From positions 5,088,001-5,152,000 of the forward strand of contig CBDETY010000003.1 of NCBI GenBank assembly GCA_965243025.1: 64,000 bases of DNA, read 5' to 3'. The DNA is from Candidatus Latescibacterota bacterium. Lineage in GTDB: Bacteria; Latescibacterota; UBA2968; UBA8231. The notes beneath the pieces were generated by a model. It was not told the origin of the DNA and made no database searches. It saw nothing but the letters and a program-made list of their open reading frames with translations. The position numbers and the translations under genes are program-made. Position 1 is the first letter of the stretch. Each line of letters begins with the position of its first letter. Shown one piece after another: positions 1-55,989 of this stretch.

Positions 1-3000
1 GCCGTCACCGTGGCAGGCTGCGGAGATGCCGGCAGTGGTCGAATCCCCGAAGACGCCGTAGTTGCGGGCCCGCACGGTTCCGTTCAGCCCGGTTCCGATG
101 CGGGTGAAGAAGTCAATGCCGGGGTAGATGGTCGAGGAGTCGTTGAACCAGCGCTTGACATACAGGTAAGTCCCGTCGGTAACGAGCACTCCCGCGCCCT
201 TCAGGCCGCGCACCGTGAACCCGTCCTCGCGGGTCGCGCTTCCCGGCCTGAGTGGGGATGAGCTGCGGGTGACCCGGAGCAGGTCCCTGTCGAGCTCGAG
301 GGACTCGAGGCCGCCGCCGGCCATCTGCACCGCCGTCTGCCGCCAGCGCAACTGCTCACCGGGCACGGGGGCTTCCTCGCTGAGCCAAAGGGAGCGGGCC
401 GCGCTCCAGGGCCCCGGGACAGCACCGTCCACCGCCCGGGCCCGCCAGAACCACGGGCCCTCGGGAAGTGCGGGGGCGAACACGGCGATTCCCTCTTCGA
501 TCTCGACAGCCGGGGAAACGGTCGAGCTGTCCGAGGCGAAGTCGCCGGCGGTCGACAGCTGGAACTCGACCTGTCCCCCCTCCCCTTCGATAACCGCCTC
601 GAAGCTCGCTGCCGCAACCGGAATCACCGCGCCGGCAGGCGGGAACAGCAGCTCCGGGACGAGGGGGGACAGGATGTCGACGGGGGCCGAGGCGGCGTTG
701 TTGCCCTCGTCGAGCTCGGCCACGAGGTCTTCCGGGTCGAGGACGACCTCGAGCAGGTGCTCCCCGCGGCGGTCCCCGATGCGCCAATCGAAAGAGAGGC
801 GGCGGCTGCCGACGAACGGGGCCTGGCGTTCGAGGTAGAGGGTGTCGCCGGTCGCCTCCCCGCGGGCGGCGACGAGCACGGTGACGCTGTCCCGGGTGGC
901 GCGGGTGTTGTTGACAAGCACCGCGGTGACCGGAACGGTGCCGCCGCTCAGCAACTCTTCTCCCGTGGTGAGTTCCCGGGGCTGATAGTCGGGCAACCGC
1001 GGCAGGGCGAGCTCCTGGGCGGGGTCGCCGAACAGCTGCATCGTCAGGGCGGAAGCGGTCCAGGAAGGGTGCGCCGCCAGGACCCGGGCTTTGGCGGCGT
1101 TCAGGGCAGGGCCGAATGCGAGCCTTTCTTCCGTGAAGAACTGCCCGAACAGCTGCTTGCCCAGAAGGTCGTTCTGCGAGGTGAAGCTCTGCGCCGAGGC
1201 CGAGATGAAGGCGATCGAGCCGCCGTCGGCGCGGTCGGTGAAGACCTCGCCGATCGCTTCGGTGTGCGGGTTGACGAACATCCCGTTGAGGCAGGAGAGC
1301 GCCGTCACCAGCGGCAGGCGAGGGCCGTTGTCGACCTGCGACAGGTAGTCCCAGTCGGGGAACTGCAGCGAGAACACGTACTGCATCGTGCCGGCGGCGC
1401 CGTGGCCGTTGAAGTTCACCAGCAGGGCGCCGGCGTTGAGGGCGTCGAGGAATGCCTTTCCCGTCGGGTTGGGGAGGTGTTTCTCGTCGGGGTTGTAGAT
1501 CTTGACCGACTGCAACCCGAACGGCTCGCTGAAGCGGGAGGCCAGCTCGTCGCTCGGCCGTGTGAACTCGTTCTTGGGATGGTGGTTGGCCAGGTAGACG
1601 ACGCGGCTGCGCCAGTCCCCGGGGGCAGGTTCGGTGTCGTAGCCGACGATCTTGTCGACCACCCCCTCCGCTTCCACGGCGGTCTCTACCGCCAGCCGGC
1701 CGACGGCGACATCCGGGAGAAGGTCGTCGCCGTCGACCAGGCTGTAGAGGTAGTCGCTGGGAGAATTGCCGCGCCGGCGCGCGTCGTAGTAGAGGGTGGG
1801 GACAAAGCTGGGCCGGCCTCCCCCCAGCAGGTTGCGGTAGTCGAAGGTGGCGTCACCGAACAAAAGCACGTACTGCGGAGGCAGCTCCCAGTTGTGGTAG
1901 GCGTGAGAGATGAAGGCGCCGATCGCCTCGCGCAGCATCAGGCCGTGCGAGAACTCGTCGAAGATGTCCTCCACGTCGACGACTTCCGCGGAAAGGCCGC
2001 TGTCCCGGCGATGGCCGGCGAGCCTTTCGGCGGCGTCGAGAAAGTCCTCGTGGGAGATTACCAGGTAGTCGGCTCCCCGATGCGCCGTCCGCAACCCCGA
2101 AGGGGAATCGAGCGCGCCGCGGGGTGTGCGGATGCTGGCGCTGTCGACGATGACGTACTCGGCCCCGGTGTTGTTCCCGTCTTCGAAAATCGCTGTGTAG
2201 AGCGGAGCGCGGGCAGTGTCTATCAGCATCCCGGAAAAAACGATTTCCCGCGCCGTGTCGAACAGGTGGATTTCGGGATGGGAAAAGTCGAACACGACAA
2301 ACTGCGTGCCGGTCGAGGGTTCGTGGTTGAAGCGCAGGTATCCGGGCCAGGCCACGTAGCGGCTGCGGTAGTCGATCGCGAAGTAGTTGAACAGCGTCTG
2401 GTCCCGGCCTTCGGTGGCGCTGGCGAACGCCTGGACGAGCAGCCTGTTGGTCCCCTTCCTCAGGTACGTCGAGGGGATCTCCTCGTCGATCTCGAACTCG
2501 ATCTGCCCCTGCCAGCGATAGTCGCCGACCTGGTGGTTGTTCAGTTTGATCACCGTGTGGTGGGCGGGGGTCTGTCCGTGCAGGGCGACCCGCAGCCGGG
2601 CGTCGTACTCCTCCTCTCCAACAGCAGGGGTGGGCAGCTCTCCGGTGAACACCGCCGAACCGGGGGTGTCGACATCGAGACCGCGGATGGGACGCCGCCT
2701 CCAGAACCAGTGGTCGCGGATTATGTCCGGGGCATCCGCGAACACCTGAAACCACTGGTCCTCCTCGAAATGGGCGGTGGTCCAGTGGAATTGGGCGACC
2801 GGGTACCCGGCAACCGGTTCCGCGGTCTCGGGCTGGAACCGCCGTCCCGCCTCCGCTCCCCAGGTAAGCCAGTAGAAGTTTTCGCGGCCGTAGATGCTCT
2901 CGAAATCCTTTCCCCCTTCCTCCGGGGTCTTGTCGCGGCGGAAGCGGCCGACGAACAGCAGGTAGTCGCTCTCGTCGAACGACCCGTCCTCCTGCCCGAA

Positions 3001-3825: not shown

Positions 3826-3997
3826 GACGGTTTAAGGTACGAAACCGGAAGGGCTGAAATAGCTTGGCGGTCCGGGCATGGGCGGATTGCCGCCCCGGGG
3901 GTTTCGTTGCTCCCTACCTGTATCCTGTATATTAACCGCATCTTCTGAAAAAGGCAGGGACCGACAGCGAGTCATGTGCTTTTCAGGGACGCATGCC

Positions 3998-4567
3998 ATG
4001 CTGACAAGGAACGGATGGTGGCCGGCTTTTCTCCTTGCGGCGACATGGGGGAACGCGGAGCCTGCGGGAGAAGCCGCCCGGAACGAAGCGGAGGTTCCCG
4101 CCCCGGCCGCGGTGTACTGCACTCCGTCGGACGACCTGGCGATCCTGAGCTGGGCGAGGGTTTCGGGCGCCGCCGGTTACCAGGTCTGGGAATGGCCGGG
4201 GGATGGGGCTGCCGGGGAGGTGAAGCCGGAGTGGATTTCCCGCGAGCGGCTCGATCCTGAACAGGGAAGAAGCGAAATCCACCGAACCCGCCCTGTCCTC
4301 CCGAGGCTGGCGGTGTCGTCCCTGTTCCTCCGGGAGGGCGAGCTGGTTTCCTCTCGGCCGATTCCCGCGGTGTTCTCGCCAGCCCCCGGCTCGAGGCGGG
4401 AAGAGATGCCTCCCCCCTTCCCCCGCCGGGCTCTCCTGTCCCCGGATCGCGATGAGGCGGAATTCGCCATCTACCGCGAAAGAGCGGAAGATGCCCTGAT
4501 CGGCCTGATCCTGCAGCAGGGGTTTCGCTTCACCAGGCGGGTGTCCTTGCGGGCAAATCGATGCTGA
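3998..4567 (+). CDS. hypothetical exported protein
   Basis: ORF 3878..4567; the ATG at 3998 gives a signal-like N-terminus (MLTRNGWWPAFLLAATWGNA). No recognisable family. Confidence 0.45.
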   Translation: MLTRNGWWPAFLLAATWGNAEPAGEAARNEAEVPAPAAVYCTPSDDLAILSWARVSGAAGYQVWEWPGDGAAGEVKPEWISRERLDPEQGRSEIHRTRPVLPRLAVSSLFLREGELVSSRPIPAVFSPAPGSRREEMPPPFPRRALLSPDRDEAEFAIYRERAEDALIGLILQQGFRFTRRVSLRANRC

Positions 4568-4722
4568 AACCGGATAATCCCGACAGCGATCAACCAGCTT
4601 CGGCGGAGCCGCCTGCAACCGACCCTGGAAAAAGCGGTTGAACGCGACTCTTTCCCGACGGCCACCCGCCCGTTAACGGGCGACCCGGAAACCTGCGGCC
4701 CTGCCGGACAGCACGCATTTCC

Positions 4723-6468
4723 TCACCTGATCAAAGTCGCCCGTCTCACGTCCTCGAAGTTGCCGGACCTGATCCGGTACAGGTAAACGCCGGTAGCCAG
4801 GCCGGATGCGTCCCACCTGACGGTCCGTTGTCCCCGGGGCATGAATCCCCGGACAAGGGTCCGTATTCTCCTGCCGCCGAGGTCGAAAACGGATATATCC
4901 ACCTCGGCCGGTTCCGGCAGGTAGCAGTTTATTCCCGTTGTGTGATTGAACGGGTTGGGAAAGTTCTGAGAGAGCGAAATTTCCCCGGCCGCGGGCCCGG
5001 CGGCGGGGCTGCTCACCTCGGTGCTGACCTTCTCTTCAACGACGTCGAAGCTGTAAGCCCATTCCGTGGCTACCATCGGCTTGGTCATCCTCTTTCCGTC
5101 GTTGCTGGTCGCTTCGACGTAGTAGTGAACCCGCGTTCCGGGAGGCTGCCCGGGAATGGTTGCGGTGAAACGGTCTCCACGCCGGTACGCCATCGGCACC
5201 TGCTCGAACCGCCCGGTATCGCCCGCCCTCCAGTGTAAAACCGCATCGGCAATACCGGATGCGGATTGAATGCGGGCATCGATTTCGTACCCCCCTGCCG
5301 GCGGCATCGAACCGGGGAGCCGGTCGTGGACGATCAGCAGGGGGTCGTCGGCGTAGATCTCCCTGGCCGCGCAGTGGATTCCACCTCCCCGCTCGGCAAA
5401 CCGGGAAGAAGGGACGGCCAGGATGCGATAGCCCGGCATGTGTTTTTCGTACAGCCGCAACGCCTCGGTGTCGGAAGGCGGATGGTCGAAGGTCGGAACA
5501 ATGACGGTCGCGTTGATGATCAGCGAGTTGATATAGGTCGCGTCGACGGTTTCATAGCTGCCGGCCCTGGATGGGCTGTTGGCAATGCGAACAAACCGGT
5601 AGGGCCGGCCGGAACGGGACAGGGTGCGGGACCGGATCGCCTCCACGGCGGCTTCGATTCTATTCTGATCGTCGCTTCTCTGTTCGTTGCCGAGATAGTT
5701 CGTTGCGGGGATTTCGCTGACGAAAAAGGTCTCCTCGTCGACGAGCTTCAGGTAGTAGTCGAGGTGGATCTGGTAGGGCGGCAATTCGACCAGTTCTTCA
5801 ATGCCGAACGACTCCTTCCAGATTTCCCACACCGTTTTCCGTTCCCTCGGGTTTTCAGGCTGATATCGGGAGTCGTAGAACAGTCTCCCCCTGCCGTCGA
5901 CGATGTAGTTGCCCCCGTCGGTGTAGTAGCCGGCGTCCGTATCGAACGTGTGAAGTGATTTCTGCATGAACCTGGCGGTGATTTCCCCGCCCACGTCGTT
6001 CCGCCAACCGAGCAGCTGCAGCGACTCGACCTCTTCCCGGTAGACGGAGAACGGACCGTTGTCCCTCAACCAGGGCTTGTAGATCCTGTCCTCCCGGTAC
6101 GACGGGAAAAACGGCACGACGTGGATTTCCGGCGCCTCCAGTCCCAGCTCGGACAACGTATCCGGCAGGCTGTAGGAGTTCGTCGTATCGTCGAGGATGT
6201 ACACCTCCACCCCGGTCTCCAGGAGAGCCCCGACCAGTTCGACGTGCTCTCCCACAAACTCCCGGCGGGCCCGGATCATCGTATCCGTCCAGCCTCCGAA
6301 CTCCTTTGCCTGGGACTGCTGCCAGAGGAAGTCGGCCTCGAACCACCCCAGCACCACCCCCTGGACCTCTTCCCATTCCGCCGGGGCTCTGGCCCGGGAA
6401 ACAGGCAGGGCGAAAAGATCCGGCGCAGCGAGGGCGAAAAGGGAGAGAATGACAGTTGCCCGGTTCAT
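4723..6468 (-). CDS. peptidylarginine/agmatine deiminase family protein with Ig-like domain and T9SS type-A-like C-terminal sorting domain
   Basis: Motifs RAPAEWEE, WLRDNGP, DGGN, HLD, TYINSLIIN and GGGIHC. C-terminus LSQNFPNPFN...GVYLYRI...RRATLIR. Signal peptide from the ATG at 6468. Confidence 0.88.
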   Translation of the reverse strand: MNRATVILSLFALAAPDLFALPVSRARAPAEWEEVQGVVLGWFEADFLWQQSQAKEFGGWTDTMIRARREFVGEHVELVGALLETGVEVYILDDTTNSYSLPDTLSELGLEAPEIHVVPFFPSYREDRIYKPWLRDNGPFSVYREEVESLQLLGWRNDVGGEITARFMQKSLHTFDTDAGYYTDGGNYIVDGRGRLFYDSRYQPENPRERKTVWEIWKESFGIEELVELPPYQIHLDYYLKLVDEETFFVSEIPATNYLGNEQRSDDQNRIEAAVEAIRSRTLSRSGRPYRFVRIANSPSRAGSYETVDATYINSLIINATVIVPTFDHPPSDTEALRLYEKHMPGYRILAVPSSRFAERGGGIHCAAREIYADDPLLIVHDRLPGSMPPAGGYEIDARIQSASGIADAVLHWRAGDTGRFEQVPMAYRRGDRFTATIPGQPPGTRVHYYVEATSNDGKRMTKPMVATEWAYSFDVVEEKVSTEVSSPAAGPAAGEISLSQNFPNPFNHTTGINCYLPEPAEVDISVFDLGGRRIRTLVRGFMPRGQRTVRWDASGLATGVYLYRIRSGNFEDVRRATLIR

Positions 6469-6548
6469 TCCCGTCGCGCCGAATGCCCGGCCCCTGCCAG
6501 ACATCAGAGAAGGCCGCAGGGCTGTTTGCCCGCGGCGTCCGCCCCCAC

Positions 6549-8678
6549 TCAATAGGCCAGGGCGAACAGGCCGATAACCTCGTCGACCTTCTCGGCCTCG
6601 AGTCTGATCCGGTACAGGTAGGTGCCGGGAGGCGCCAGGGCGCCGCTGGCAGTGCGGCCGTCCCAGGTCTGCCGGTAGGCTCCGCTGGTCGACAGGCCGG
6701 AGCTCAGGGTGGCGACAGGCCTGCCGGAAAGGTCGAAGATTTCCAGCAGGACCTCTCGGGCGTCGGTCACTTCCCGCAGCTTGTAGTCCACGAAGACCCG
6801 GTCGTTGACGCCGTCGCCGTTGGGGGTGAAGGGGTTGGGGCCGACCGTCACGTCGGCGAGCAGGTCGCCGCCGATCGGCGAGCGCACCGACAGGTCGTCC
6901 CCGGAGAACCGGAAGGTGGCGTTGCCCGCCTCGATGCGCTGCTTGATGAGGTCGGGATCGGAGCTGTCGTAGACCCAGCCGGTGAACTGGGTTCCGAAGC
7001 GGAGAACCGGGGCGTCGAAAACGACCTCGATCTGCTTGAAACTGCTGTCGGGATCGGCCACCCGGAAGGGGAATGCGACAACCAGGCGGTCGTCTTCGAC
7101 CACGGGGGGAAACTCGTTGAGATCGACCTCGTAGACGCCGTCGATGGTGACGGACCGCACCTGCTCCGCCCGGGAGTGGGTTATGACTTCCAGGCGGTCG
7201 AACCCGCTGTCCTCCTCGTCGAACCGCGGCTTGATCACGTAGGTGAAGGTTTCCGGGTCGAAGCTTTTTACCTCGACCGGCCAGATTTCACCCACCACCT
7301 CCTGCGCGACAGGCGTCTCGCTGAAGAGGATGGCGACCTGTTCGAGTCGCGGGGCGACCTCGAAGGTGCCGAACATGCGGATATCGAGCTGCAGGTAGCG
7401 CCCGAGTCCCTCGGAAACGACCGGCAGGCCGTCCTCCCAGCTTCCGGCCGGGAGCGAGGAATCGCGGCGTCCGCCCTCGAAGTCGTAGACCGGAGACCAG
7501 AAAGTCCAGTTCTCCGTGTCGTATTCGATCGGCACCTGATCGAGGAAATTAATGTCTTCGTACACCTCTTTGGTGGTGGGAACGACGTTTCCGTTGGGGT
7601 CCATCTCGAAGTAAAGGCTTGGATCGGGAGTGTTGCCGGTGCGGGTGCGCACCTCAACCCTCGTTCCTTCCGGGAAGTCGCCGCTCCAGCGGATCCTGCC
7701 CCAGTTTACGTGCTTGCCGAAGTCCATGATCTGGGAGACGATGCCGGTCTCGCGGACGTACCCCTCGGGATAGATTTCCAGTTCGGCCACTTCCCAGCTG
7801 TGGGTGGGGTTCGGTTCGAACAGGAGCCAGCGCACCGAACGGGTGGGAAACTGCAGGTCGACGACCGTGTCGATGTTCTCCTCGGTGCTGTAGAGGACGT
7901 CGAACCGCCTGTCTCCGCGTTCGGGCCAGTTCGGATGCTTGGAATGAGTGCCGTGGGGATTGCGGTCGCACGGCCCCTTGACGAAGATGCCGACCGAGTT
8001 GTCGGCGACGCGGATGGTGAATCCGTTGAGAAAGTTCTCCGCGTAGCTTTCGACGTTGAAGGATTCGAGGGGGATGGGGGGATCGGCAAGCGACTCGATC
8101 AGGCGCGCGTCGTCGCGCTGACCGAGGCGAGGATAGAAACGGATCCGCGAGAGGGGAACGGGAACGCCCAGATCGAGTATGGCGATACCCTTGTACCCGG
8201 ATGCGCTCCGGAATCTGGCGTTGTAGATGATCTTGTAGAAGGTGGCCGTCTTGGGATCGCCGTCGAACGACGGCTTGTAGTTCTGTATGGTGCCCGCGTG
8301 CACGCAGCTGGTGGCGACCTGCACCCGGCCTCCGACCAGGGGCAGGGGTACGTCCGTTACTCCCGTGGTCGGGTCGGTGACCGCAACGTTGACGCTGCCG
8401 TCGAAGAACCAGGGCTCGATGGTGTTGGCCCGGGTGTCGATCCCGTCGCCGCCGGCCTGGCCGAACGGTGTTATTCCCACCGTCTCCCGGCGCTCGATGT
8501 CTCCCCCGCTGCCGAGAATGAAGTACTCTCCCGCCTCGGCCGGGCTCGTCGCCGCTTCCCAGGGATTCCCGTCCTCCCCGCCGAGGCGGTATTCGGTGCG
8601 GGCCAGGGCATCGGCGGCACCCCAGAAGACAACTGCTGCGACCGCCATGTTTCCGATTGGTGTGAACAGGTCGTTCAC
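6549..8678 (-). CDS. secreted protein with discoidin-like region and C-terminal FlgD-Ig/type-B-CTD-like domain (paralog 1)
   Basis: GTG at 8678 with a GGGAGG RBS; FDGDPKT and ILDLG motifs; C-terminus GPNPFTPNGDGVND...WDGR...PPGTYLYRI...FALAY. Confidence 0.8.
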   Translation of the reverse strand: MNDLFTPIGNMAVAAVVFWGAADALARTEYRLGGEDGNPWEAATSPAEAGEYFILGSGGDIERRETVGITPFGQAGGDGIDTRANTIEPWFFDGSVNVAVTDPTTGVTDVPLPLVGGRVQVATSCVHAGTIQNYKPSFDGDPKTATFYKIIYNARFRSASGYKGIAILDLGVPVPLSRIRFYPRLGQRDDARLIESLADPPIPLESFNVESYAENFLNGFTIRVADNSVGIFVKGPCDRNPHGTHSKHPNWPERGDRRFDVLYSTEENIDTVVDLQFPTRSVRWLLFEPNPTHSWEVAELEIYPEGYVRETGIVSQIMDFGKHVNWGRIRWSGDFPEGTRVEVRTRTGNTPDPSLYFEMDPNGNVVPTTKEVYEDINFLDQVPIEYDTENWTFWSPVYDFEGGRRDSSLPAGSWEDGLPVVSEGLGRYLQLDIRMFGTFEVAPRLEQVAILFSETPVAQEVVGEIWPVEVKSFDPETFTYVIKPRFDEEDSGFDRLEVITHSRAEQVRSVTIDGVYEVDLNEFPPVVEDDRLVVAFPFRVADPDSSFKQIEVVFDAPVLRFGTQFTGWVYDSSDPDLIKQRIEAGNATFRFSGDDLSVRSPIGGDLLADVTVGPNPFTPNGDGVNDRVFVDYKLREVTDAREVLLEIFDLSGRPVATLSSGLSTSGAYRQTWDGRTASGALAPPGTYLYRIRLEAEKVDEVIGLFALAY

Positions 8679-8949
8679 TTCCGGCCTCCCTCGGCTGCCG
8701 TGTAGCAATTAAGGGGACGTCGCGGTTCCCATTAAGAAACTCAATACCGCGGGGGGGGACAATCCTGTTTTCCATCCGCCCGGGGCCGGATTTGAAACCT
8801 GATACAGTATGCCGTTTTCAACTCTTCAACAGCCGGCCAGAATCTCATTGAGCAGGCGGATGGCTATCGATATCTTCAGGCCCTTGGCGATCGAAGGCAA
8901 TGACATGACATCGACAGTGCGGGACGGAAGCCACACCGACAACAGGTTC

Positions 8950-10599: not shown

Positions 10600-10620
10600 C
10601 GCTCCAGGTGGTGGATACTC

Positions 10621-13600: not shown

Positions 13601-13920
13601 TCTCCGAGGTGGAGATAAGCCCGAATCCGTTTACCCCCAACGGCGACGGCATCAACGACGCAGCCCGGATCGGCCTTTCGGTCTTCAAGATAACCGCCGG
13701 CAGAGAGCTCGGGGTAAGCATCCACTCTCTCGACGGACGTCGCGTCTGGGAGGCGAAGCAGGTGGTATCCGGCGGAGCGCACACGATTCAATGGTCCGGG
13801 GTGGACAATGCCGGGAAGTCCGTGCCCCCGGGAATGTACATCTGCCGCATCGAGCTCGACGTCGATTCGAAGGACCGGGGAGAGGCCGCGGTGGCCCGCC
13901 TCATTTCGGTTGCCTATTGA
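10621..13920 (+). CDS. large secreted protein, discoidin-like domains plus C-terminal FlgD-Ig/type-B-CTD-like domain (paralog 2)
   Basis: Signal peptide; LFDGDPGTYWE..WIEIDLG and AFDGDYNTYF; C-terminus SPNPFTPNGDGIND...PPGMYICRI...ISVAY. Confidence 0.82.
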   Translation: MKRHDGMHPRMLLAGLCSLAVLAAARHAPAQVETRGAEVSNELISVNSASHWENWSIPTHAVDIVGDAVVPHYFRMRFNVLEDFRTYRRSIDELTWPVDDKFRVHGGVGAFTAVPNVQRTFSLDANGEMKLRNDLNMEKYLDANFLKYPGNEAHLVIDGVLFVLEDTTMTAAKEGVLTLRNARTGRTSRMDFQTKDKLPFPIYEYSVRQGVSRLGSGSVDQGALFDGDPGTYWEPDANDPLEKWWIEIDLGRTVLVDEIVLKFADAGNGDPFRQFKVLTEPGQQLILEEAGELEFAVVAGTDAPNEDQRTFSFGMEDTRDAAPGWDGRMVETIRIVVFDTKGSRHTRLGSEAEWQDLDPADRGDIVHFVRDQGGFEEPVSREEYDQLPGQRQGRRDFYRRERPRLSEVEVWGLGDNIGPGIKQGGGSFDVIGEGVSSPIDAFDGDYNTYFSQQLPTPTLAQRGLMVADLGATFWLDQLRISAVWIRSYTTVFDGYIHRGSDGTSDARGRLKWTRLSSAEREKNQAPQYLQIKDEYPEAPRIRFLETRIVSERDAFRTSSEGAGIVEYQLYTRAYPAEVVLESDLFALPGTRNLGRIFWDADTPPGTGIEVRTRSGDLLGKVVRYFDDAGKEISLTAWKSLRRPPPPDTVFVPTSGWSPWSNVYQGSGDRVTSPGLRKYLQAQVVLTTDEREAAARIRSLEIELVAPVGERILAEVWPSEVPDPGVVDTFEVYIRPNFIEDPAPSRSLGFDEILLELGSGGIELLELAVGADPASGTADQTFRPVDGVFSDQEGAGLEVLRNGADSIWVRFPELQTSRDDAEPVYHRITSEGDEVPVDQNGVMLTAAAYGLLSGEEQGAVQYFRLEADGGLAEVDHPDYAELDPSEQGPVRYFRVLQGDGSQFPFSAGGDTLTSAGYSSLGRAERGSVVAEGNLMRVTFAAPVYRNGTTLVLAARNSGGGADPEAPWQTIEAGDATPAFDGNTLSIGVPLGLAALSEVEISPNPFTPNGDGINDAARIGLSVFKITAGRELGVSIHSLDGRRVWEAKQVVSGGAHTIQWSGVDNAGKSVPPGMYICRIELDVDSKDRGEAAVARLISVAY

Positions 13921-13946
13921 GAGATCTCAACATCTGGGAGGGTGTC

Positions 13947-16640
13947 GTGAGAATAATCGGACGACCAGCAGCAACCATCCTCGTCGCCGCGGCGCTGGCA
14001 GCGACAACCTCGTCTGCCGCCGCCCAGGAGTACGGGTCACGGCTGGGCAACGTTCGGCGGGGAGGCGAAGTCTCATTCGATCCGCGCGGCCCCGGGGTCC
14101 TGTTCGGAGCCCTCGACCCGGCGATGAAGAAGTGGTACGTGTCCCAGGAGCTGTATGCCGAGTACGCCTGGAAACAGTGGGAATACTCGAACTACGCCCG
14201 CAGGCACTTCGCCCGTTATGTCGATATCGCCCTGGAAGGGGACTATTACTACGACCTCTACGGGAACTTCGTCACTCACGGCTGGCTCATCTTCAACAAT
14301 TCGCAGAGCCAGCCCCAGCAGTTCGGCAGCTCGGTGCTCAAGGCCAACCGTTTCGACGGGTGGTTCAGCGGGGCGGTGATTTCCGCGGACGCCAAGGGGC
14401 AGTACCAGTACGCGCTGACGATCAGCAACCAGCTGCGGACGACGCTGACCCCGATGACCTTCTCCAAACCCAGGTGGGACGGGGTCCAGTTCGACTGGGC
14501 TTCCGACAAGTACATGGGAACGGTCGTCTATTCGCGCATCAGCTCCCCGGGAGGCAGCTCGACGCTCGACCTGGAACGGCTGGCAACGAACGCCACCTCC
14601 CTGTTCGGCGGCCGGGTGGAAGGCCAGGTCGGCGATTTCGCCACCGTCGGCCTCACCTACGTGAACTCGCACCAGTCAAACACCCTGCGCGACGGTTTCA
14701 GCGGCGACCCCTTCTCCGGGGAGCTGACCATCGATCAGAACAAAACCGTCAGCTTCATCGAGATCGTGCTGCGCGACGACTCTCCCGAGGACGGCAAGGG
14801 AGGGGCGGCCTACTTTCCGGCCGGCTCGGACATCATCATCACCTACTCCGGGCGGGACGCGGAGGGCAGGAAGCTCCGGGACGAAGGCCAGAAGATCCGC
14901 TTCGAACCGATTGTGGAGGGCGGGTTCATCGAAGAGGGATACCTCGCCGCCGACGGCGCCGAGGAGATCCGCCTTCGCTACGACTTCAACAACCCCGATT
15001 TCGTCAATCGTTCGAGCGCCCCGAAGGAGGAGATCGAAAAGGTCGAATTCCGCCTGGTTCTGGGGAACGACTACCAGATCTGGATCACCTCCAGCCAGCA
15101 GGTTAGCCAGTCCGGGGACGCGGTTCTGCTGCCCGTAACCCGGGCCGAGGGCAACGTGCAGGACAACACCAACCTGCGCGTGGTCAGCTTCGAATACGGC
15201 CTGCCGACGGCGACGCAGATTCTCGGGGGGACTCTGGAGCTGTCGGACGTGGCGGGTTTCGACGTCTTCGCCGAGTACGACCTGAGCTACTCCTTCACGA
15301 AGTATCCCAATATCGCCAGCGAAAGCCACTCTACCTCCTCGGGCTTCAAAGGGGCGCGGGCGGCGCCGGCTTGGATGATCAACGCCTCGCGGAGCAACTA
15401 TCCCTGGTTCCTGTTCGGGGAGGTTTACAGCATGAACCCGCGCTACAACACCCGAACGTTCGCCACCTCCACGGATGGCTTCATCGGTTACGACGACACC
15501 CGGTTGTACGCGGTGGAGCTGGTCGAAGACAACGACGACCAGGATCGCTTCCCCGATACGAGACGCAGGGACTCTCTGGCGGGGGACCGCGAGGTGTTTC
15601 CTGGATGGGACGAAAACAACGACTTCATTTCCGACTTCAACCAGAACGACAACGCGGTGATAACCAACTCGGTACCGGACTACGAGGAGTCGTTCCTGCG
15701 GCACAACGTCGACCGTCCGGAGTTCCTCTTCGGTATCGATCTCAACAACAACCTGTGGGTCGACCGTTTCGAGAACGACGAGGATCCGGATTACCCCTAC
15801 CGCAAGGATCACGAAGGGTTCAACCTCTACGCCGGGACGCACCTTACCCCCGACACCCGCTTGACTGCAGGCCTCCTGCGCGAAGACCTGATCTCCTCCG
15901 ACCAGAAAAACCACGTCGACTACCTGATGTTCACCCTGGACCGCGACATTCCCGTCTGGGGGCGTTTCAGGGTTTTCGACATGCTCAAGTCGGTGAGGGA
16001 CGACATACCCAACGACCTCCTGCAGTGGCTGCCGAACGCCAACCTGAAAACCGGGGAAGGGACCTCCATCGTCGATCCCCTGGTGGCCCCCGACACTTGG
16101 ACCAACAGTTTCTGGGCCGGTCACGACTATCGGATCGCCGGGTTGTCGACGAGCAACTACCTGAAGTGGGATTACTACAACCAGCGCAAGGACGAGGTGG
16201 AGCTCGACCTCCTGGGGCTGAGGGCGAAGGATTACTTCTTCGGCCTGATCAACAAGGCCAGCTACCGGTTCGACCTCGGCGTCCTCTGGTTCGAGCCGAG
16301 GTGGAAGAGCGAATACCGGCGGCAAACCCTGGGTCTTGCGACATCCAACCGGGAGAAAAGGGTGGAGCTGGCGCAGGTCGGCGGGCTCATCGCCGGGCTT
16401 TCACTGCTGACGCATACCTTCGTTCAGGGGGGGATCGAGTTCACCTTCCTCAACGACTTCGAGGGTGACGCCGATATGAACGGCACCGCCACCGCCCTGC
16501 AGCTGACCAACATCTCCGACTACCTGGGTTACAAGCTCACTACCCAGGCAGGCATCAAGATCGACTACCTCGACCGCAAGGGGCGCGACCCCACGACGCT
16601 GGCCAAGAGCTTCATCACCGTGTACGCCGGCCTGGAGTAG
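13947..16640 (+). CDS. exported hypothetical protein, probable outer-membrane beta-barrel with acidic Ca-binding-like loops
   Basis: GTG at 13947 after GGAGG; signal peptide ending AAAQ; alternating hydrophobic/aromatic strands at the C-terminus (..FITVYAGLE); D/N-rich motifs. The barrel call is inference. Confidence 0.6.
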   Translation: MRIIGRPAATILVAAALAATTSSAAAQEYGSRLGNVRRGGEVSFDPRGPGVLFGALDPAMKKWYVSQELYAEYAWKQWEYSNYARRHFARYVDIALEGDYYYDLYGNFVTHGWLIFNNSQSQPQQFGSSVLKANRFDGWFSGAVISADAKGQYQYALTISNQLRTTLTPMTFSKPRWDGVQFDWASDKYMGTVVYSRISSPGGSSTLDLERLATNATSLFGGRVEGQVGDFATVGLTYVNSHQSNTLRDGFSGDPFSGELTIDQNKTVSFIEIVLRDDSPEDGKGGAAYFPAGSDIIITYSGRDAEGRKLRDEGQKIRFEPIVEGGFIEEGYLAADGAEEIRLRYDFNNPDFVNRSSAPKEEIEKVEFRLVLGNDYQIWITSSQQVSQSGDAVLLPVTRAEGNVQDNTNLRVVSFEYGLPTATQILGGTLELSDVAGFDVFAEYDLSYSFTKYPNIASESHSTSSGFKGARAAPAWMINASRSNYPWFLFGEVYSMNPRYNTRTFATSTDGFIGYDDTRLYAVELVEDNDDQDRFPDTRRRDSLAGDREVFPGWDENNDFISDFNQNDNAVITNSVPDYEESFLRHNVDRPEFLFGIDLNNNLWVDRFENDEDPDYPYRKDHEGFNLYAGTHLTPDTRLTAGLLREDLISSDQKNHVDYLMFTLDRDIPVWGRFRVFDMLKSVRDDIPNDLLQWLPNANLKTGEGTSIVDPLVAPDTWTNSFWAGHDYRIAGLSTSNYLKWDYYNQRKDEVELDLLGLRAKDYFFGLINKASYRFDLGVLWFEPRWKSEYRRQTLGLATSNREKRVELAQVGGLIAGLSLLTHTFVQGGIEFTFLNDFEGDADMNGTATALQLTNISDYLGYKLTTQAGIKIDYLDRKGRDPTTLAKSFITVYAGLE

Positions 16641-16650
16641 CGGGTGCTGC

Positions 16651-18654
16651 TTGCCTGAAGTCACCGTCGGCTCGCAGGAGGCTGTTTCCAGGCGGCCGGG
16701 GATTTTCGGGAAGTTGCTGCCGCGGGTGGTGGAATCCCCCCTCCACGGCATGCTCCTGGTTCTGGCGCTGGCAGCGGCGGTGCGCGTCGTCCACCTGCAC
16801 CAGGCGAGCTCGGACCCGCTGTTCGATTACCCGGTCGGGGCGGCCCGTTCGTACGCCGCCGCCGCAGGAACGGCCCCCCATGTCGGCGAATCTGCCACCG
16901 CTCGGGCGCCGGCGGGGCCCTTGATCGAAGTTTCTCCCTACGCCCGTTTCTACGCCTTCTCCCTCGCTGCAACCGGCGGCGACCATACCCCGGTTCTGAT
17001 TGCCAACCACGCCGCCGGCGTCGCCGCCTGCCTGCTGGTCTACGGCATCGCCTCGGCCCTGTTCACCCCGCCGGTCGCCCTGGCCGCCGGCCTCGGCGCC
17101 GCTTTCCACGGGCCGCTCATCCATTTCGGGGCCGAGCTGACGCCCGTCGCCTGGGTCGCTTTCCTGGTCCTGTTGCTCGCGTACGCGATGGTCCGGCCGG
17201 ACCGGACCGGGGTGCGCATGGCAGCCGCAGCGGCGCTTGCCTTCATCGTGCTGACAGAAGCCGTTGCCTGGCAGGCACCGCAGATTCCCGACTCTCCGGG
17301 GCGGTTCCTCACCAACATCTTCTACCTGCTGCAAGGGGTGGAACTGCTGCCGGACCTCGATCCCTACCGGGACGGGACCGGTGCCGCGTCGGTGCTTCTC
17401 TGGCACCGGGGACTGGCTTTCCCGATGGGGGTGGTCATGCCCCTCGGCGCGATCGGTCTTCTCGGCTGTGTGCGCTCGCAACACCGCGCCGGGGAGATGT
17501 CCGGCATTGTTGTGCTCCTGGGACTGCACCTGCTGGCGCTGGCCGCGCTCGCCCCCGATGGGCGGCATCGACTGCCCCTGGCCCTGCTCCTGCTTCCGTT
17601 TGCCGCCTGGGCACTGCTGCGGGGGTTCCCCGCCCCCGGCCGTCGCTGGCGGGCGCTCCTGTTCCTGGTCCTCCTTCTGGCGGCCAACGCCGGTCTGGCG
17701 GCTCCTTCCCACTTGGGCGGGAAGCGGCAGCACGACTACTGGACCGGAGTGGCCTATGCGGAAAAACGGATGTATTCCCATGCCAGGGAGGCTTTCGACC
17801 GGATCCTCGCGAGGGAGCCGAGCCATGGGGGCGCCCTTCTTGCCAGCGCCCGCCTCGCCAGGCGTGACGGACAGATCGACCGCGCCTTGCTGCTGTACGA
17901 CGCCTTTCTCAAGGAAAATCCCGGCCCTTCCGAGATCCTTTACGAGATGGGAAAAACCTTTGCCGCCGCGGACCGGTTCGACGAGGCCGTCGGCGTTTTC
18001 GAAAGAGCCCGAGCCGCTGGTGATTCATCCATTTTCCTCCTCGGCGCCCTGGGCCACGCCCGTTACATGGGGGGCGATACCGACGGAGCCGCCGCCGCCT
18101 ACCTCGCCGCCGTTCAGGCCAAGCCCGATTCGATTGCTCTCAGGTACCGCCTGGCCCATGCGTACGAAGCAGGGCAGCGGATCGATCGAGCGATCGAGCA
18201 GTATCGTCTGCTTCTGGAAGGGAGCCCCGCAAGGGCCGAGTTCCACGCTCGGCTGGGGGAGTTGCTCCTGTTCAGGGAGGAGTCGCGCGAAGGGTCGATC
18301 TACCTGGAGCGGAATGAAACCACCAGCGAGGCGGAGGAGCACCTTCGCGCCGCGGTTTCCCTGCAGCCAGAACTGGAACCCGCCCACCGTTCCCTGGCGA
18401 TGCTGCTGTCGAAGCAGAGACGCTACGATGAGGCGATCGCCCAGTTCGAGCGTTTGCGCGAGTTGAACCCGAACGAACCGGAGCTGCAGCGGCTTATCGC
18501 CAACCTGCATGAGCGGGCAGGAAATCCCGGCGAGGCCTCCCGGCAGTTCGACCTCTTCAGACGGATGCACAGAGAGATGGAGATCCAGAGGAGGGCCGAG
18601 GAAAAAGCGCGGGAGCTCGCCGGTGAGATATGGGCAAAGCCAACCTCGCCATAA
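16651..18654 (+). CDS. GT-C (ArnT/PMT-like) membrane protein with C-terminal TPR repeats
   Basis: Many hydrophobic segments in the N-terminal half (DPLF, RHRLPL motifs), followed by multiple TPR units. Confidence 0.65.
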   Translation: MPEVTVGSQEAVSRRPGIFGKLLPRVVESPLHGMLLVLALAAAVRVVHLHQASSDPLFDYPVGAARSYAAAAGTAPHVGESATARAPAGPLIEVSPYARFYAFSLAATGGDHTPVLIANHAAGVAACLLVYGIASALFTPPVALAAGLGAAFHGPLIHFGAELTPVAWVAFLVLLLAYAMVRPDRTGVRMAAAAALAFIVLTEAVAWQAPQIPDSPGRFLTNIFYLLQGVELLPDLDPYRDGTGAASVLLWHRGLAFPMGVVMPLGAIGLLGCVRSQHRAGEMSGIVVLLGLHLLALAALAPDGRHRLPLALLLLPFAAWALLRGFPAPGRRWRALLFLVLLLAANAGLAAPSHLGGKRQHDYWTGVAYAEKRMYSHAREAFDRILAREPSHGGALLASARLARRDGQIDRALLLYDAFLKENPGPSEILYEMGKTFAAADRFDEAVGVFERARAAGDSSIFLLGALGHARYMGGDTDGAAAAYLAAVQAKPDSIALRYRLAHAYEAGQRIDRAIEQYRLLLEGSPARAEFHARLGELLLFREESREGSIYLERNETTSEAEEHLRAAVSLQPELEPAHRSLAMLLSKQRRYDEAIAQFERLRELNPNEPELQRLIANLHERAGNPGEASRQFDLFRRMHREMEIQRRAEEKARELAGEIWAKPTSP

Positions 18655-18829
18655 GCACCGAACTGTCTGAATCCCACCGACTTGGACGAATTGGGCGGCA
18701 GCGGGTCAGGGGGAAATTCCCTTGACTTCCCAGTGCTGTTGCCACTCTTTATTAACCTTCGGTCGCGGGGATTCGCGGACGCGACATTCTTTCGCTGGTA
18801 CTCTCACCGTATCCAAGGAGGATCGCAGA

Positions 18830-19711
18830 GTGCAAAAATTCACTATCGCAGCCATAGCGGGCCTGGTTGTCGTTGGACTGGTCGGCATGGCAGGAGCGCA
18901 CAAACCGGAAGGGGAGAAGTATTTCGCCTTTCAGTTCGAAGACGGAGCGGTGCCGGTGATCGACGGGGATCTGTCCGACTGGGCTTTCGTCCCCGACTTC
19001 TACCGGATCACTCAGGACAAGCTGTTTTCGCCGAACAAGGGGATTCGCGACGTCGGCCGCGGCGAATTCGATCCGAGCGATGTCTTCAACACGCACACCT
19101 TCGGCTTCAACCCCAACGACGAGTTCCTCTACGTCTCGACCTCGCAGTACGACAACTACCACAACGCCGACCGCGAAGCGCCGAACTCGCTGTGGACGGA
19201 CGATGACTGGGAGGTCCGCATCAACCCCACCGCCCTTCCCGAAGACCAGCACAACCTCGAAGGTGAGCCGGTCAATTACATCATCTATGTTCACGCGGTT
19301 CCCGCGGTTCAGGATGTGTACGAGGTCATTCTTCCGGGACCGGATTTCCTGCTGGACGGCAACGGCCACCTGGAGTTCGGCTGGAGCTGGGAGGGCGAGA
19401 TGCTGGACGGGGAAACGACCTATTTCCTCGAGATGAAGCTCAACCCCGTGGTCGCTCTCGGAGAAACCGAGGGAGAAACCGTATGGATGGATATCGAGGA
19501 GGGTGACGAAATCCACATGAACGTCACTCATGCCGACCTCGATGCTCCTCACCCGGCGACTTACAACGGTTTCTGGGCGATTTCCCCCGGTCCTTCGAAC
19601 AATCCGGAGGTCGATCTGGTCATGGACGAGATCGACGACAGTGTCGACCAGATGGCAACCGCCGTCGAAGAAACGAGCTGGGGCCTGATCAAGGAGGGGC
19701 TTTCCAAGTAG
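18830..19711 (+). CDS. secreted CBM9/DOMON-like protein with short C-terminal AVEETSWGLIK tail
   Basis: GTG at 18830 after AAGGAGG; signal peptide; PVIDGDLSDW; ends TAVEETSWGLIKEGLSK. Confidence 0.72.
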   Translation: MQKFTIAAIAGLVVVGLVGMAGAHKPEGEKYFAFQFEDGAVPVIDGDLSDWAFVPDFYRITQDKLFSPNKGIRDVGRGEFDPSDVFNTHTFGFNPNDEFLYVSTSQYDNYHNADREAPNSLWTDDDWEVRINPTALPEDQHNLEGEPVNYIIYVHAVPAVQDVYEVILPGPDFLLDGNGHLEFGWSWEGEMLDGETTYFLEMKLNPVVALGETEGETVWMDIEEGDEIHMNVTHADLDAPHPATYNGFWAISPGPSNNPEVDLVMDEIDDSVDQMATAVEETSWGLIKEGLSK

Positions 19712-19770
19712 CAGCAGAGACCCATCTCCCGCACGGCGCGGGAACGTCTCCTGAGGCAGAAAGGGTTTCG

Positions 19771-19813
19771 AGCCCCCGGGTGTCGCACCTGACCCCGGGG
19801 GCTTTCTGTTTTT
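19771..19813 (+). terminator. intrinsic terminator
   Basis: Perfect 10-bp stem AGCCCCCGGG/CCCGGGGGCT followed by TTCTGTTTTT, between convergent genes. Confidence 0.8.
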
Positions 19814-19869
19814 GTGGGGCGACGGGCAGGCGGGAGCTGTCGGCCGGGACTTCGGGCGCGCCCCCGCTT

Positions 19870-21993
19870 TCAGTACGTCAGGGAAACCACCCGGGACAAC
19901 CGGCCCTCTTCGGCATCCCCCGACACTTCGATCCTCACCAGGTACAGCCCCGGCGGCAGCAGGGAACCGGACAGGCCGCGTCCATCCCAGGAAATGTCAC
20001 TGTAGTTCCCGCTGACCTGCTCGGCGTCGCCGATGACGGCGACGGTGCGTCCGCTGAGATCGTGGACCTTTATCGAAACCGGCGTCGGAGCGGTTACGGC
20101 CAGCAGATTGTAGAGGACTTCCAGGCGGTCGTTGACGCCGTCCCCGTTGGGAGAAAACGGGTTCGGCTGCATCACGACTTCGTCGAGGAGGCGGGAGCTC
20201 GTGAGGACCTCGGGGCTCACCACCGCGGTGCCGGATTCGTCGTCGTCGTCCCCTTCCCCGAGAAACGCGGTGTTTCCGGGGGTGAGGGCCTGGAAGGCAT
20301 CCTCCCCTGTGGAAAGTCGAACCGCGCCCCCGAAATTGGTGCTGTAGGTCAGAACCTGGGATTTGAAACGCACCACCACCCGGGTGTGGTTGTCGCGGAC
20401 GTGGGGGAACCGCAGGGAAAAGCCGTCGTCGGCGACCTCGAGGATCTGGTACCCGTCGACGCTCGAAGTATCGTCCAGGCCGGTGAATTGCCGGCCGCCC
20501 AGGAGCTCGTCGTCGGCGCTGCGCAGTTCGATGGCGTCGATGCTCTCCGCGCGGGCGGGCGTGGATATCTCGATGGTGTCGAATCCGGTCAGGCCCGAGG
20601 ACTTGATTACCGCCAGGACGGAATAGATGAAGTCGATGGTCCGTGAGACATCCACCTCGCGGGGGAATATCTCGGCGTTTACGGAGTCGGCCAGGGGCGG
20701 AGAGGCGAAATCGATGCTCAGGGTTTTCAGGATCCGCGTGGCGCTGAGATCGGTGCTGTGAAAGGTGGCCTCGAACTGGAAATACCGCCGCGGGCTGGGG
20801 GAGATCGCCGGAGTTCCCGGGCCATTGGCCGCCGATTCCGGGTAGGGAGAGCTGAACGGGCTCCAGTTGACGAGGTCGTCGAGGATGTTTCCCCGCTCCC
20901 ACTGCCGGCCCTCGTCGTCGGTAGGCGGCAGGTTCTCGTACCCTTCGAGATCCATCTCCACGGTGGTGCTGTTGATGGCGAACGGGATTTCCTCCGCATC
21001 CGATATGCCGTTGAGCTTGCGGGTAAAGACGAACGGGGAGTCGTCGGTGCCTGTGCGGGTGCGAATTTCCAGGGAGGAGTCCCCGGGTTTGCCGACGATC
21101 TCCTCCGTCCAGCGCAGATCGGTCCAGGCGACCGGTTCCCCGGCGTCGAAAATGTCGGACAGGTAATGTCCGGTGGCGAAGAACCCCTCGCCGTAGATCT
21201 CGAGTTCATCGATCTCCCAGTTGATCGACGTCTTCGACTGCAGGCGGATGTGCCGCAGGACCTGCGGGGGATCGATGTCGATTTCGACCACCGGGCCGGG
21301 ATTGTCGCGTTCGGAGACCAGTTCCCTCCACACCGGGTTTCCCTCGTCGGTCAGTTGCAGCCCGTCGTTGACCAGCAGGTCGAACGCCCGCAGGTAGTCG
21401 TCCTCGAAGGGGGTCGTAGGCGAGGGCTGTACCGTGTTGCGGGGATAGAACCGTATCTTGTTCAAACCGATGCGGCTTCCGAGGTCGAGGACGATGATGA
21501 TCCCGAAGACCCCGTTGGGGATGTTCTTGCGCTCGAAAGCCTCGAGCTCGCCCCCCTCGTCGGCCTGGTCGAGCAACTCTGGAAGGATGAAGTTCTGCAG
21601 CTTGTTGCGGTCCAACCCGCCGGCGAAGCCGAAGCCCTCGGTTTCGCTGAACACGTTGGGGGCGTTGATATAGCCGCCCCGGGAGAGAGCGGTGGAGGCG
21701 ACGTTCTCCCCGGGGACCACCTCCAGCAGGTGCATGCTTCCGGGGACGCGCTCGCTGTCGACCTCGAGCAGGTTTCCGGGGATGTTGCCCTGCACCAGGT
21801 CGTTGGGATCGTCCCGGGACCGTGTGAGCGCGGGCAGGATGGCCTCCACCGGCGCGGTACCCTGCCCGCGCCAGGTGAGATTTCCCTCCTCGCCGATCAC
21901 AATCGTTCGCACCTCCGCGGCAAGGGGAGAAGTGGCCACGAGTAGACCGATCAACGGTGCCGTCAGCCGGCAGCAGTCGCGTGCCCGTATCAT
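19870..21993 (-). CDS. secreted protein with C-terminal FlgD-Ig/type-B-CTD-like domain (paralog 3)
   Basis: Signal peptide; VLDLG..KIRFYPR and LEIRTRTGTDD shared with the paralogs; C-terminus PNPFSPNGDGVND...PPGLYLVRI...VSLTY. Confidence 0.82.
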   Translation of the reverse strand: MIRARDCCRLTAPLIGLLVATSPLAAEVRTIVIGEEGNLTWRGQGTAPVEAILPALTRSRDDPNDLVQGNIPGNLLEVDSERVPGSMHLLEVVPGENVASTALSRGGYINAPNVFSETEGFGFAGGLDRNKLQNFILPELLDQADEGGELEAFERKNIPNGVFGIIIVLDLGSRIGLNKIRFYPRNTVQPSPTTPFEDDYLRAFDLLVNDGLQLTDEGNPVWRELVSERDNPGPVVEIDIDPPQVLRHIRLQSKTSINWEIDELEIYGEGFFATGHYLSDIFDAGEPVAWTDLRWTEEIVGKPGDSSLEIRTRTGTDDSPFVFTRKLNGISDAEEIPFAINSTTVEMDLEGYENLPPTDDEGRQWERGNILDDLVNWSPFSSPYPESAANGPGTPAISPSPRRYFQFEATFHSTDLSATRILKTLSIDFASPPLADSVNAEIFPREVDVSRTIDFIYSVLAVIKSSGLTGFDTIEISTPARAESIDAIELRSADDELLGGRQFTGLDDTSSVDGYQILEVADDGFSLRFPHVRDNHTRVVVRFKSQVLTYSTNFGGAVRLSTGEDAFQALTPGNTAFLGEGDDDDESGTAVVSPEVLTSSRLLDEVVMQPNPFSPNGDGVNDRLEVLYNLLAVTAPTPVSIKVHDLSGRTVAVIGDAEQVSGNYSDISWDGRGLSGSLLPPGLYLVRIEVSGDAEEGRLSRVVSLTY

Positions 21994-55985: not shown

Positions 55986-55989
55986 CGGC

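Follow-up and report, generated by a model that had tools for sequence, protein, structure and literature searches.

We report on a window of 64,000 nucleotides (contig CBDETY010000003.1, positions 5,088,001 to 5,152,000) from a Candidatus Latescibacterota bacterium, in which several proteins with C-terminal domains (CTDs) of a type IX secretion system (T9SS) are encoded. The genome has about 24 diverged copies of one phylum-wide cassette, among them the stretch from 6.5 to 22 kb. In this undescribed cassette, surface proteins predicted to bind sugars are paired with an outer-membrane barrel of very large size. The cassette genes lie together, are distributed together across genomes and are linked to one class of CTD, no named family includes the barrel, and the core of the T9SS is encoded elsewhere in the genome. 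From 1 to 6.5 kb, the window encodes T9SS equipment and cargo of an ordinary kind, namely a long form of the sortase PorU and a PAD_porph-family protein with a type A CTD. As a whole, we read the locus as two independent units and the cassette as a T9SS-fed device for glycan capture and uptake, an account that we find somewhat easier to believe than to doubt.

A sequence-only reading of the same DNA had listed nine genes and three kinds of C-terminal tail in the first 22 kb, and open reading frame (ORF) calls, Pfam, NCBIfam and a motif check found all of them in place. It had also taken them for a divergent, lineage-specific system. This holds in so far as the cargo, foldase, barrel, GT-C/TPR (tetratricopeptide repeat) and SWGxIK-tailed genes are co-conserved in 78 loci and tied to a CTD class. 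The claim of a self-contained export and anchoring system does not hold, since SprA, PorU and PorV are encoded elsewhere and the genome has about 158 CTD proteins; the long PorU and PAD genes are not co-conserved with the rest, and the locus is one of about 24 paralogous clusters.

Recurrence and distribution of the cassette

Genes were called from the frame bias of third-position G+C (GC3) and checked with Pfam and NCBIfam, and paralogues were collected by BLAST of the window proteins against all ORFs of the host genome. This genome consists of 6.8 Mb in three contigs and is 96% complete, with a contamination/duplication estimate of 6%; the G+C content of the window is 65%. There are 41 barrel paralogues (36-51% identity), 89 cargo paralogues and 12 paralogues of the peptidyl-prolyl isomerase (PPIase), and cargo genes occur in 21 of the 24 barrel clusters that they form. 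When families within 12 kb of the 24 clusters are counted, cargo is found at 20, the SWGxIK family at 15, DUF6785/DUF6784 at 14, PPIase at 13 and FG-GAP/UnbV at 11. The closest paralogous cluster (C3:394908-410692) keeps the full gene set, and no PorU-like or PAD gene was found at the other 23 barrel clusters. In the window, the FG-GAP/UnbV and DUF6785 genes, which recur at barrel clusters, sit at 22-33 kb, and the cassette unit therefore probably continues to about 33 kb.

A profile search with the barrel family returned 78 loci in public metagenome-assembled genomes (MAGs), many of them cut by contig ends. Cargo C is present in 70 of these loci, cargo B in 52, the PPIase and cargo A in 49 each, the TPR protein in 39 and the SWGxIK protein in 38. 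The order PPIase, cargo B, barrel, TPR and cargo C on the minus strand recurs in eight loci (L045-L051 and L100) whose barrels are 64-68% identical, one of the MAGs being from a deep lake. Overall, MAGs of differing habitats share the cassette order while their barrels are 44-68% identical. By their deposit labels, 45 of the 78 loci belong to Candidatus Latescibacterota, 29 to Gemmatimonadetes, Gemmatimonadota, Gemmatimonadaceae or Gemmatimonas, and 4 to others. Latescibacterota is part of the FCB group; on the labels of the relatives' records and this placement, the organism is outside Bacteroidota, as had been supposed from the letters.

Among 30 relatives, barrel and cargo do not differ in their phyletic profile: both are present in 18/18 genomes of the same family, in 0/9 of family f2 and in 0/3 of family f3. 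In the phylum, the barrel occurs in 107 of 168 species genomes (host included), among them 75/75 of the same family. It occurs in 0/31, 0/3 and 0/22 genomes of three other families of the class, and in most genomes in the families of other classes. As kin are not independent, all these phyletic counts are descriptions and not statistics. For 8 adjacent pairs of cargo C and barrel, the two distance matrices are correlated with r = 0.95, a value reached by 0 of 2000 permutations.

Classes of C-terminal tail

A CTD profile built from the three local tails was used to count C-terminal CTDs genome-wide, and 158 were found. TIGR04183 alone gives 99 matches in the genome, nearly all over its cut-off. 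The three cargo proteins of the window end in PNPF(T/S)PNGDG(V/I)ND...[AT]Y, with the FTPNGDGxND motif in 3/3. Of the 158, 68 are of the TPNGDGxND type, with AY or VY as the usual ending, and 45 of these are no more than 3 kb away from barrel clusters; the clusters make up 7% of the genome. The tails with PNPF only (64 of the 158) mostly end in LR or LK, and just 4 are near barrel clusters.

The model of type B CTDs, TIGR04131, matches 35 ORFs, all of them lectin-family cassette cargo. Of the local tails scored against the two models, the PAD protein is confirmed as type A over the cut-off; cargo A, at 29.4-33.7 bits, stays below the TIGR04131 cut-off of 35, and cargo B and cargo C do not match. 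From these scores, the cargo CTD class appears best described as type-B-like, not type B.

For the third kind of tail, ORFs with the pattern W[GSA]x[IVLM]K among their final 25 residues were counted; it is found in 68 of 6402 ORFs as compared with 1 of 6048 internal control windows, far beyond chance. An eleven-member alignment of the SWGxIK family has an invariant TAV...W...K tail with the consensus TAVExxSWGRIK and a signal peptide that ends in AH.

Two tandem paralogues, about 1.04 kb apart and with about 74% DNA identity, are located at 60300-62263 on the minus strand. The second (61358-62263) ends in SAVTGVSWGRIKASLSE and belongs to a large SWGRIK-tailed family of about 300 residues that forms arrays elsewhere, for example at C3:2836379-2839219.

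The giant barrel

None of 23 barrel paralogues matches a Pfam family at E<=1, which includes the plug and TonB_dep_Rec families, and the window copy has no NCBIfam match. The PorP/SprF model (TIGR03519) has no match in the genome at E<=0.001, the barrel included; the only score is 18.8 bits for the PorV protein. An AlphaFold2 (AF2) model from the paralogue alignment (pLDDT 69.6, pTM 0.70) predicts about 30 long strands and is poor in two regions, the conserved N-terminal 140 residues and an Asp-rich insert. A complex prediction of barrel residues 100-897 with the CTD of cargo C scored 0.00, which counts neither way.

Assignment of the barrel to a family by its fold was tried and rejected. The best Foldseek match is SlpA 8ae1 (E 6e-9, TM 0.18), and only generic barrels are returned. 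VIA-align gives Z values of 9-13 with no stand-out, and its matches to BtuB and FptA (Z 11.9-12.8) cover the barrel wall only. In the Atlas, 30/30 nearest clusters of the barrel are uncharacterised, and the nearest with a Pfam family is DUF6029 at 0.88, which is only a lead.

The insert of the barrel is conserved and rich in Asp and Asn (residues ~528-609 of the 897-residue form; DDNDDQD...NNNGWIDRFENDD) and has many invariant D and N residues. By its composition it looks like calcium-binding loops.

Other components of the cassette

The coordinates of all features are collected in Table 1. The families of cargo A, B and C are mutually related, with 35, 27 and 27 paralogues in the genome, respectively, and cargo B also matches CHU_C (29 bits, over the cut-off of 27). 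In profile searches, the cargo tail matches FlgD Ig-like and PorU CTD structures (PDB 6za2), and the bodies give weak matches to galactose-binding-like modules, namely CBM32, CBM6 and sialidase lectin domains.

Table 1. Features of the window, with coordinates in the 64,000-nucleotide stretch.
Feature	Position	Strand	Evidence or remark
Long PorU, N-terminal 1275 residues	1..3825	-	signal peptide, PorU-like N-terminal region, C25, CARDB; runs off the window
PAD_porph-family guanidino-modifying enzyme, secreted	4723..6552	-	PAD_porph 106 bits and type A CTD
Cargo A, lectin family, type-B-like (TPNGDGxND) CTD	6549..8708	-	CHU_C 38 bits, FlgD_ig 36.8 bits
Parvulin-type PPIase, two rotamase domains, probable lipoprotein	8809..10599	+	Pfam; lipobox-like VMSC
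Cargo B, F5/8 type C (discoidin-like), type-B-like CTD	10621..13920	+	F5/8 type C 34.7 bits against 28.2
Giant outer-membrane beta-barrel, unnamed family	13791..16640	+	AF2 model; likely start near 13947
Membrane domain and TPR, GT-C (PMT_2)-like family	16651..18654	+	about 8-9 hydrophobic helices, then TPR repeats
CBM9-like secreted protein, SWGxIK tail	18722..19711	+	ends in TAVEETSWGLIKEGLSK (SWGLIKEGLSK)
Cargo C, lectin family, type-B-like CTD	19870..21993	-	Pfam/NCBIfam and profile searches
FG-GAP/ASPIC-UnbV/TPR lipoprotein-like protein, probably cassette accessory	22054..25026	+	family near 11/24 barrel clusters
FG-GAP/UnbV protein, cassette-associated family	28942..31482	+	Pfam; cluster recurrence
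DUF6785/DUF6784 polytopic membrane protein, candidate inner-membrane permease	31430..33448	+	Pfam 406.9 bits
ABC-2 transporter operon, GldA/GldF/GldG type	52812..57544	-	best NCBIfam matches

For the protein that had been called GT-C/TPR, the TPR repeats and the PMT_2 family stand, and the GT-C part is barely detectable in the window copy. The assignment of this copy rests on its orthologues. Among the membrane-type TPR orthologues, PMT_2 is found at E<=0.1 in 9/11 and over the cut-off in 6/11, and a paralogue in locus L022 scores 35.2 bits. The N-terminal membrane domain of the window copy is about 90-120 residues shorter than those of the orthologues (667 as against 740-788 residues in total length), and this copy, in which the PMT_2 signal is almost lost, may be decaying or remodelled.

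The SWGxIK protein, which likely starts at 18830, is matched by no Pfam or NCBIfam model. Its AF2 model is of low confidence (mean pLDDT 57.4), and the top three Foldseek matches are all CBM9 (E 6.6e-5 to 2e-4, TM on target 0.57-0.62). We treat the predicted CBM9 likeness as a lead and not as a finding.

Further genes accompany the cassettes. The DUF6785/DUF6784 family, whose members have 8-14 hydrophobic segments, has a second copy in the window at 37771-40080 on the minus strand, and GHL10-like and GDSL-like genes are interspersed with cassette genes. Genes with FGE-sulfatase domains, weakly GldK/GldJ-like (24-71 bits), are located a few kb from several barrel clusters (C3:5684984, 6193734, 2523175 and 344132) and may be a further accessory family.

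The T9SS core elsewhere in the genome

The inventory of T9SS components was made by six-frame searches of the whole genome with hidden Markov models. SprA (TIGR04189) was found with 470 and 119 bits, or 598 bits in one frame of 2067 residues, over the cut-off of 200. Two canonical PorU proteins (NF033707) score 621.5 and 615.1 bits, over the cut-off of 420. Next to one PorU is a protein of the PorV/PorQ family, with 222.6 bits for NF033709 (cut-off 90) and 147 bits for the PorV equivalog (cut-off 250). A canonical set is thus encoded outside the locus. A canonical T9SS that explains the cargo is what the sequence-only reading had named as refuting its system, and as regards export this is the case.

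GldL, GldM and GldN (TIGR03517, TIGR03513 and TIGR03523) had no match in the genome, in a search made without a positive control and on an assembly of the completeness given above. For GldK (TIGR03525) only generic FGE-sulfatase proteins were returned (70.6 bits against 350), outside any gldKLMN-like operon. The GldK-like gene at C3:1556016 was considered as part of a gldKLMN operon and rejected, its neighbours being an esterase-like protein, a D-amino-acid dehydrogenase and PanB.

The two canonical PorU genes (C3:3585441-3589379 and C3:6051394-6055332) both encode 1312 residues, and only the first adjoins the PorV gene. There are further near-identical pairs among the long ORFs, such as those of 1724 and 1726 residues at 4598887 and 6020334. 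The PorU pair and the paired long ORFs together suggest large recent duplications or unresolved haplotypes. Adjoining the PorU-PorV pair is a gene (L146, C3:3581202-3583802) whose product is homologous to the 'T9SS-dependent M6-like inactivated metalloprotease' (NF052323, 241.7 bits against 600). The product also contains FG-GAP repeats, as well as a type A CTD that is weak.

No full-text paper pairing Latescibacter with type IX secretion or T9SS was found; supplements and subscription journals lay outside the coverage of this search. The passages on secretion and the outer membrane in PMC4454575 name porins, TonB import and the type VI secretion system, not the T9SS, and in the part consulted that paper describes the phylum as saccharolytic. 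According to the relevant section of a 2016 survey (PMC4793230), the T9SS was found only in Bacteroidota.

The long PorU and the PAD gene

The C25 gene at the left end of the window matches Peptidase_C25 with 254 bits (Pfam cut-off 23), as well as CARDB. Its best NCBIfam match is PorU (T9SS_sortase, NF033707) with 260.8-261.3 bits, below the cut-off of 420, and PorU2 (NF052324) is not reached either (227 bits against 450). The full protein has 1842 residues, of which the remaining ~570 are encoded to the left of the window, and it has a terminal CTD of its own (FlgD_ig 34.5 bits). Its ends match positions 7-736 and 959-1086 of the PorU model, and about 700-800 extra residues lie between them. 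No PorV gene adjoins it.

Orthologues of 1.8-2.2 thousand residues occur once each in 17/18 genomes of the same family (46-83% identity) and once each in 11/12 genomes from two further families in the class (37-38% identity). The latter are f2 and f3, where the long PorU is present and barrel and cargo are not found. In five sister-family genomes (5/5; G019, G020, G024, G026 and G029), a long form of about 1900 residues is the sole PorU-family match at E<=1e-15, and none of the PorU-family matches in these genomes reaches the PorU cut-off. Judging from these matches, the sister-family lineages may run a T9SS with the long PorU form alone.

The synteny of the long PorU was compared in 12 relatives. 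Within 16 kb upstream, the PAD gene and the cassette were found in 1/12, a genome of the same genus (L134), and were absent in a second genome of the same genus and in ten more relatives. Gene order is kept across MAGs for the cassette and not for the C25 and PAD genes, which the sequence-only reading had placed in the same system. Conserved neighbours sought across the 12 loci gave a best family common to only 5/12, and a single long-PorU sequence used as the query found no related loci. Since the long PorU occurs in families without barrel and cargo, and since its synteny with the cassette is not conserved, we regard it, from its predicted orthologues, as a class-wide single-copy gene and not as a part of the cassette.

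The PAD gene likely starts near 6468 (MNRATVIL) and has one full-length copy in the genome by BLAST against all ORFs. The protein has a catalytic-type Cys within GGGIHC and carries the NFPNPFN...GVYLYRI motif. Its type A CTD (TIGR04183) scored 31.3 bits in one search and 35.0 in another, over the cut-off of 23, and PF18962 is just missed (26.7 bits against 27). The agmatine deiminase equivalog gives 40.7 bits against a cut-off of 381.8.

Between the long PorU and the PAD gene is a stretch of about 0.9 kb (3826-4722) with lower G+C, no convincing coding frame and no Rfam match. In it, short repeats are at chance level only, and two ORFs have no family match in Pfam or NCBIfam. The depth of a sponge RNA library (X19) is 0 over most of it (bin 3828-4491) and that of a coral RNA library (X20) is 0.08, which proves nothing.

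Proposed mechanism and alternatives

In the reading that we favour, the lectin-like proteins would cross the inner membrane via Sec and the outer membrane via SprA. The type-B-like CTD would hand them to the cassette barrel, which would take the role of PorP/SprF in Bacteroidota. The parvulin lipoprotein may aid the folding or insertion of the barrel or the cargo, the GT-C/TPR enzyme may glycosylate a component in the periplasm, and the CBM9-like protein may join the complex via its SWGxIK tail. The complex would capture a specific glycan, and fragments would cross the barrel to the DUF6785 membrane protein. Overall, this would be an uptake device like that of a polysaccharide utilisation locus (PUL), built on the T9SS in place of lipoprotein export. 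That the devices would be substrate-specific is suggested by the many diverged copies per genome, as in PULs, and by the saccharolytic nature of the phylum in the part of PMC4454575 referred to above.

Several points weigh against this account. No GldL, GldM or GldN that would energise SprA was found in the search made without a positive control, and the GldK matches are only generic. The type-B assignment of the cargo is sub-threshold, with the TIGR04131 cut-off (35) reached by only 3 of the 35 genome matches; CHU_C on cargo C has 25 bits, below 27; and PMT_2 on the window TPR protein has 11.1 bits (E 0.48), against a cut-off of 26.1. En-bloc duplication alone predicts the co-divergence of cargo C and barrel (n = 8), and the GC3 filter is crude, so that the paralogue counts are approximate. 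Binding and transport by the cassette are predicted from genes, and for a barrel that lacks a plug, a TonB box and a family match, the roles of channel, anchor and translocon are all alike hypothetical.

A bolder version goes further. In it, the T9SS of Latescibacterota would be a reduced one, SprA-PorV-PorU lacking any recognisable GldKLMN motor or ring. It would feed dozens of giant barrels, each specific to its cassette, that act both as anchors of the type-B-like CTD lectins and as import channels, a PUL-equivalent architecture evolved independently of SusC/D, and a new 17-residue C-terminal tag (TAVExxSWGRIKxxx, ~60 proteins per genome) would constitute a third surface-sorting route. We put it forward tentatively, as an idea that is probably wrong in this full form.

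Among the rival explanations, the one that survives best is that the barrels are analogues of PorP/SprF that only tether lectins or adhesins and transport nothing, the cargo being variable adhesins, for example for sponge matrix or particles. The type-B-like motif, together with the lack of PorP/SprF in the genome, fits this, as do the tight adjacency and co-divergence of cargo and barrel and the finding of the stretch in sponge metagenome runs. However, an anchor would need much less than a barrel of about 30 strands, genes for a polytopic membrane protein and hydrolase-like genes are found repeatedly next to the cassettes, and cassettes are also found in lake and groundwater MAGs, so they are not host-specific. 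We give the anchor-only explanation a minor but real chance.

The next explanation is the original one, a self-contained divergent system of CTD-dependent export, folding, glycosylation and anchoring, with the adjacent C25 protein as a dedicated sortase and the barrel as its PorP-like partner. The genes are adjacent here and in one genome of the same genus (L134), cargo A, PAD and the long PorU are on one strand, and the long PorU keeps the GHG and SC motifs, which we take to be the typical C25 catalytic pair. Against this, the adjacency is absent in 11/12 relatives, the long PorU is kept in families without barrel or cargo, the other 23 barrel clusters have neither a PorU-like nor a PAD gene, and canonical SprA, PorU and PorV are encoded elsewhere. 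The proposal is largely refuted by synteny, and we consider it improbable.

Equally hard to credit is an alternative translocon, in which each barrel would be a SprA-independent secretion pore for its neighbouring cargo and the parvulin its periplasmic chaperone. The barrel is in the size range of large translocons, Foldseek returns SprA 8gl6 (E 1.4e-4, rank 33), GldKLMN was not found, and the PPIase is a fixed partner; SprA itself co-purifies with a PPIase. Yet SprA, PorV and PorU are present and canonical, the SprA match is no better than those of other barrels (TM 0.16), and 41 translocons per genome would be without precedent. Least probable of all is that there is no functional link, the barrels being expanded porins in a lectin-rich region and the cassette a by-product of segmental duplication: the genome does have large duplications (the equal-length PorU pair, the ORFs of 1724 and 1726 residues) and a contamination/duplication estimate of 6%, but the gene order is kept at 44-68% barrel identity across habitats, the phyletic profiles of barrel and cargo are identical, and paralogues at 36-51% identity are old, retained copies.

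Other features of the window

The operon at 52.8-57.5 kb had been called a GldA/F/G-type operon, 30 kb away from the locus. Its best matches are indeed GldA, GldF and GldG, but all are below the equivalog cut-offs (250.8 against 402.6, 148.1 against 288.5 and 20.5 against 389.85 bits, respectively); ABC_transp_aux scores 110 bits. No functional tie between this operon and the locus is shown.

No RNA family at gathering scores was found in the window (Rfam). Runs labelled as sponge metagenome contain the stretch, and assembled contigs of two metatranscriptome libraries, at 90-99% likeness, cover parts of the genes for the long PorU, cargo A, the PPIase, the barrel, the SWGxIK protein and cargo C. 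As DNA may be present in metatranscriptome libraries, coverage was not counted as expression, and uncovered bins are uninformative.

Comparison with known systems

The biology of the T9SS rests almost wholly on Bacteroidota. The present genome, outside Bacteroidota, encodes a canonical translocon and canonical attachment proteins, some 158 CTD proteins of two classes, and an expanded barrel family of no named kind that is tied to one of these classes. If the barrels do partner the type-B-like CTDs, T9SS cargo would be anchored without PorP/SprF, and this would be a route to food for an uncultured phylum of polysaccharide degraders. The requirements of the sortase could be studied on a variant that nature provides, the long PorU; five sister-family genomes yielded no other PorU-family gene.

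PPAD is the T9SS-secreted peptidylarginine deiminase of Porphyromonas gingivalis. The window PAD protein is like it in that a type A CTD comes after the PAD_porph domain; unlike PPAD, its match is at family level only (106 bits), and its substrate could be agmatine or peptidyl-arginine. The long PorU is likewise comparable with PorU of the PorU/PorV attachment complex of P. gingivalis (PMC12365241) in its PorU N-terminal region, C25 domain and retained CTD, and a PorU-PorV gene pair is present at another place in the genome. It differs from that PorU in its 1842 residues with ~700-800 extra ones, in its 261 bits against 420, and in having no adjoining PorV.

The SusC/SusD PULs are polysaccharide utilisation loci of Bacteroidota. 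The cassettes are like them in that one genome has many diverged copies, in that every copy combines a large barrel with surface carbohydrate-binding proteins, and in that inner-membrane transporter and hydrolase-like genes are near. Unlike these PULs, the cassette has no signature of a TonB-dependent receptor or plug and no SusD homologue, and its surface proteins have T9SS CTDs in the place of lipoprotein signals.

The closest parallel to the pairing of cargo and barrel is within the T9SS of Bacteroidota, where, according to the parts consulted of PMC9143113 and PMC12618676, type B CTD cargo has cognate PorP/SprF-like proteins (SprB-SprF and PG1035-PorP). As in these pairs, the cargo CTD of the cassette opens with FTPNGDGxND, the barrel gene adjoins, and cargo and barrel duplicate together. 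PorP/SprF proteins have roughly 300-400 residues, unlike the cassette barrel with its ~900-1000 residues and predicted ~30 strands, which does not match TIGR03519. Unlike type B cargo, the cassette CTDs are mostly below the TIGR04131 cut-off, and in contrast to the PorP/SprF systems, each cassette further includes three lectin paralogues, a parvulin and a GT-C/TPR protein, together with a CBM9-like protein that has an SWGxIK tail.

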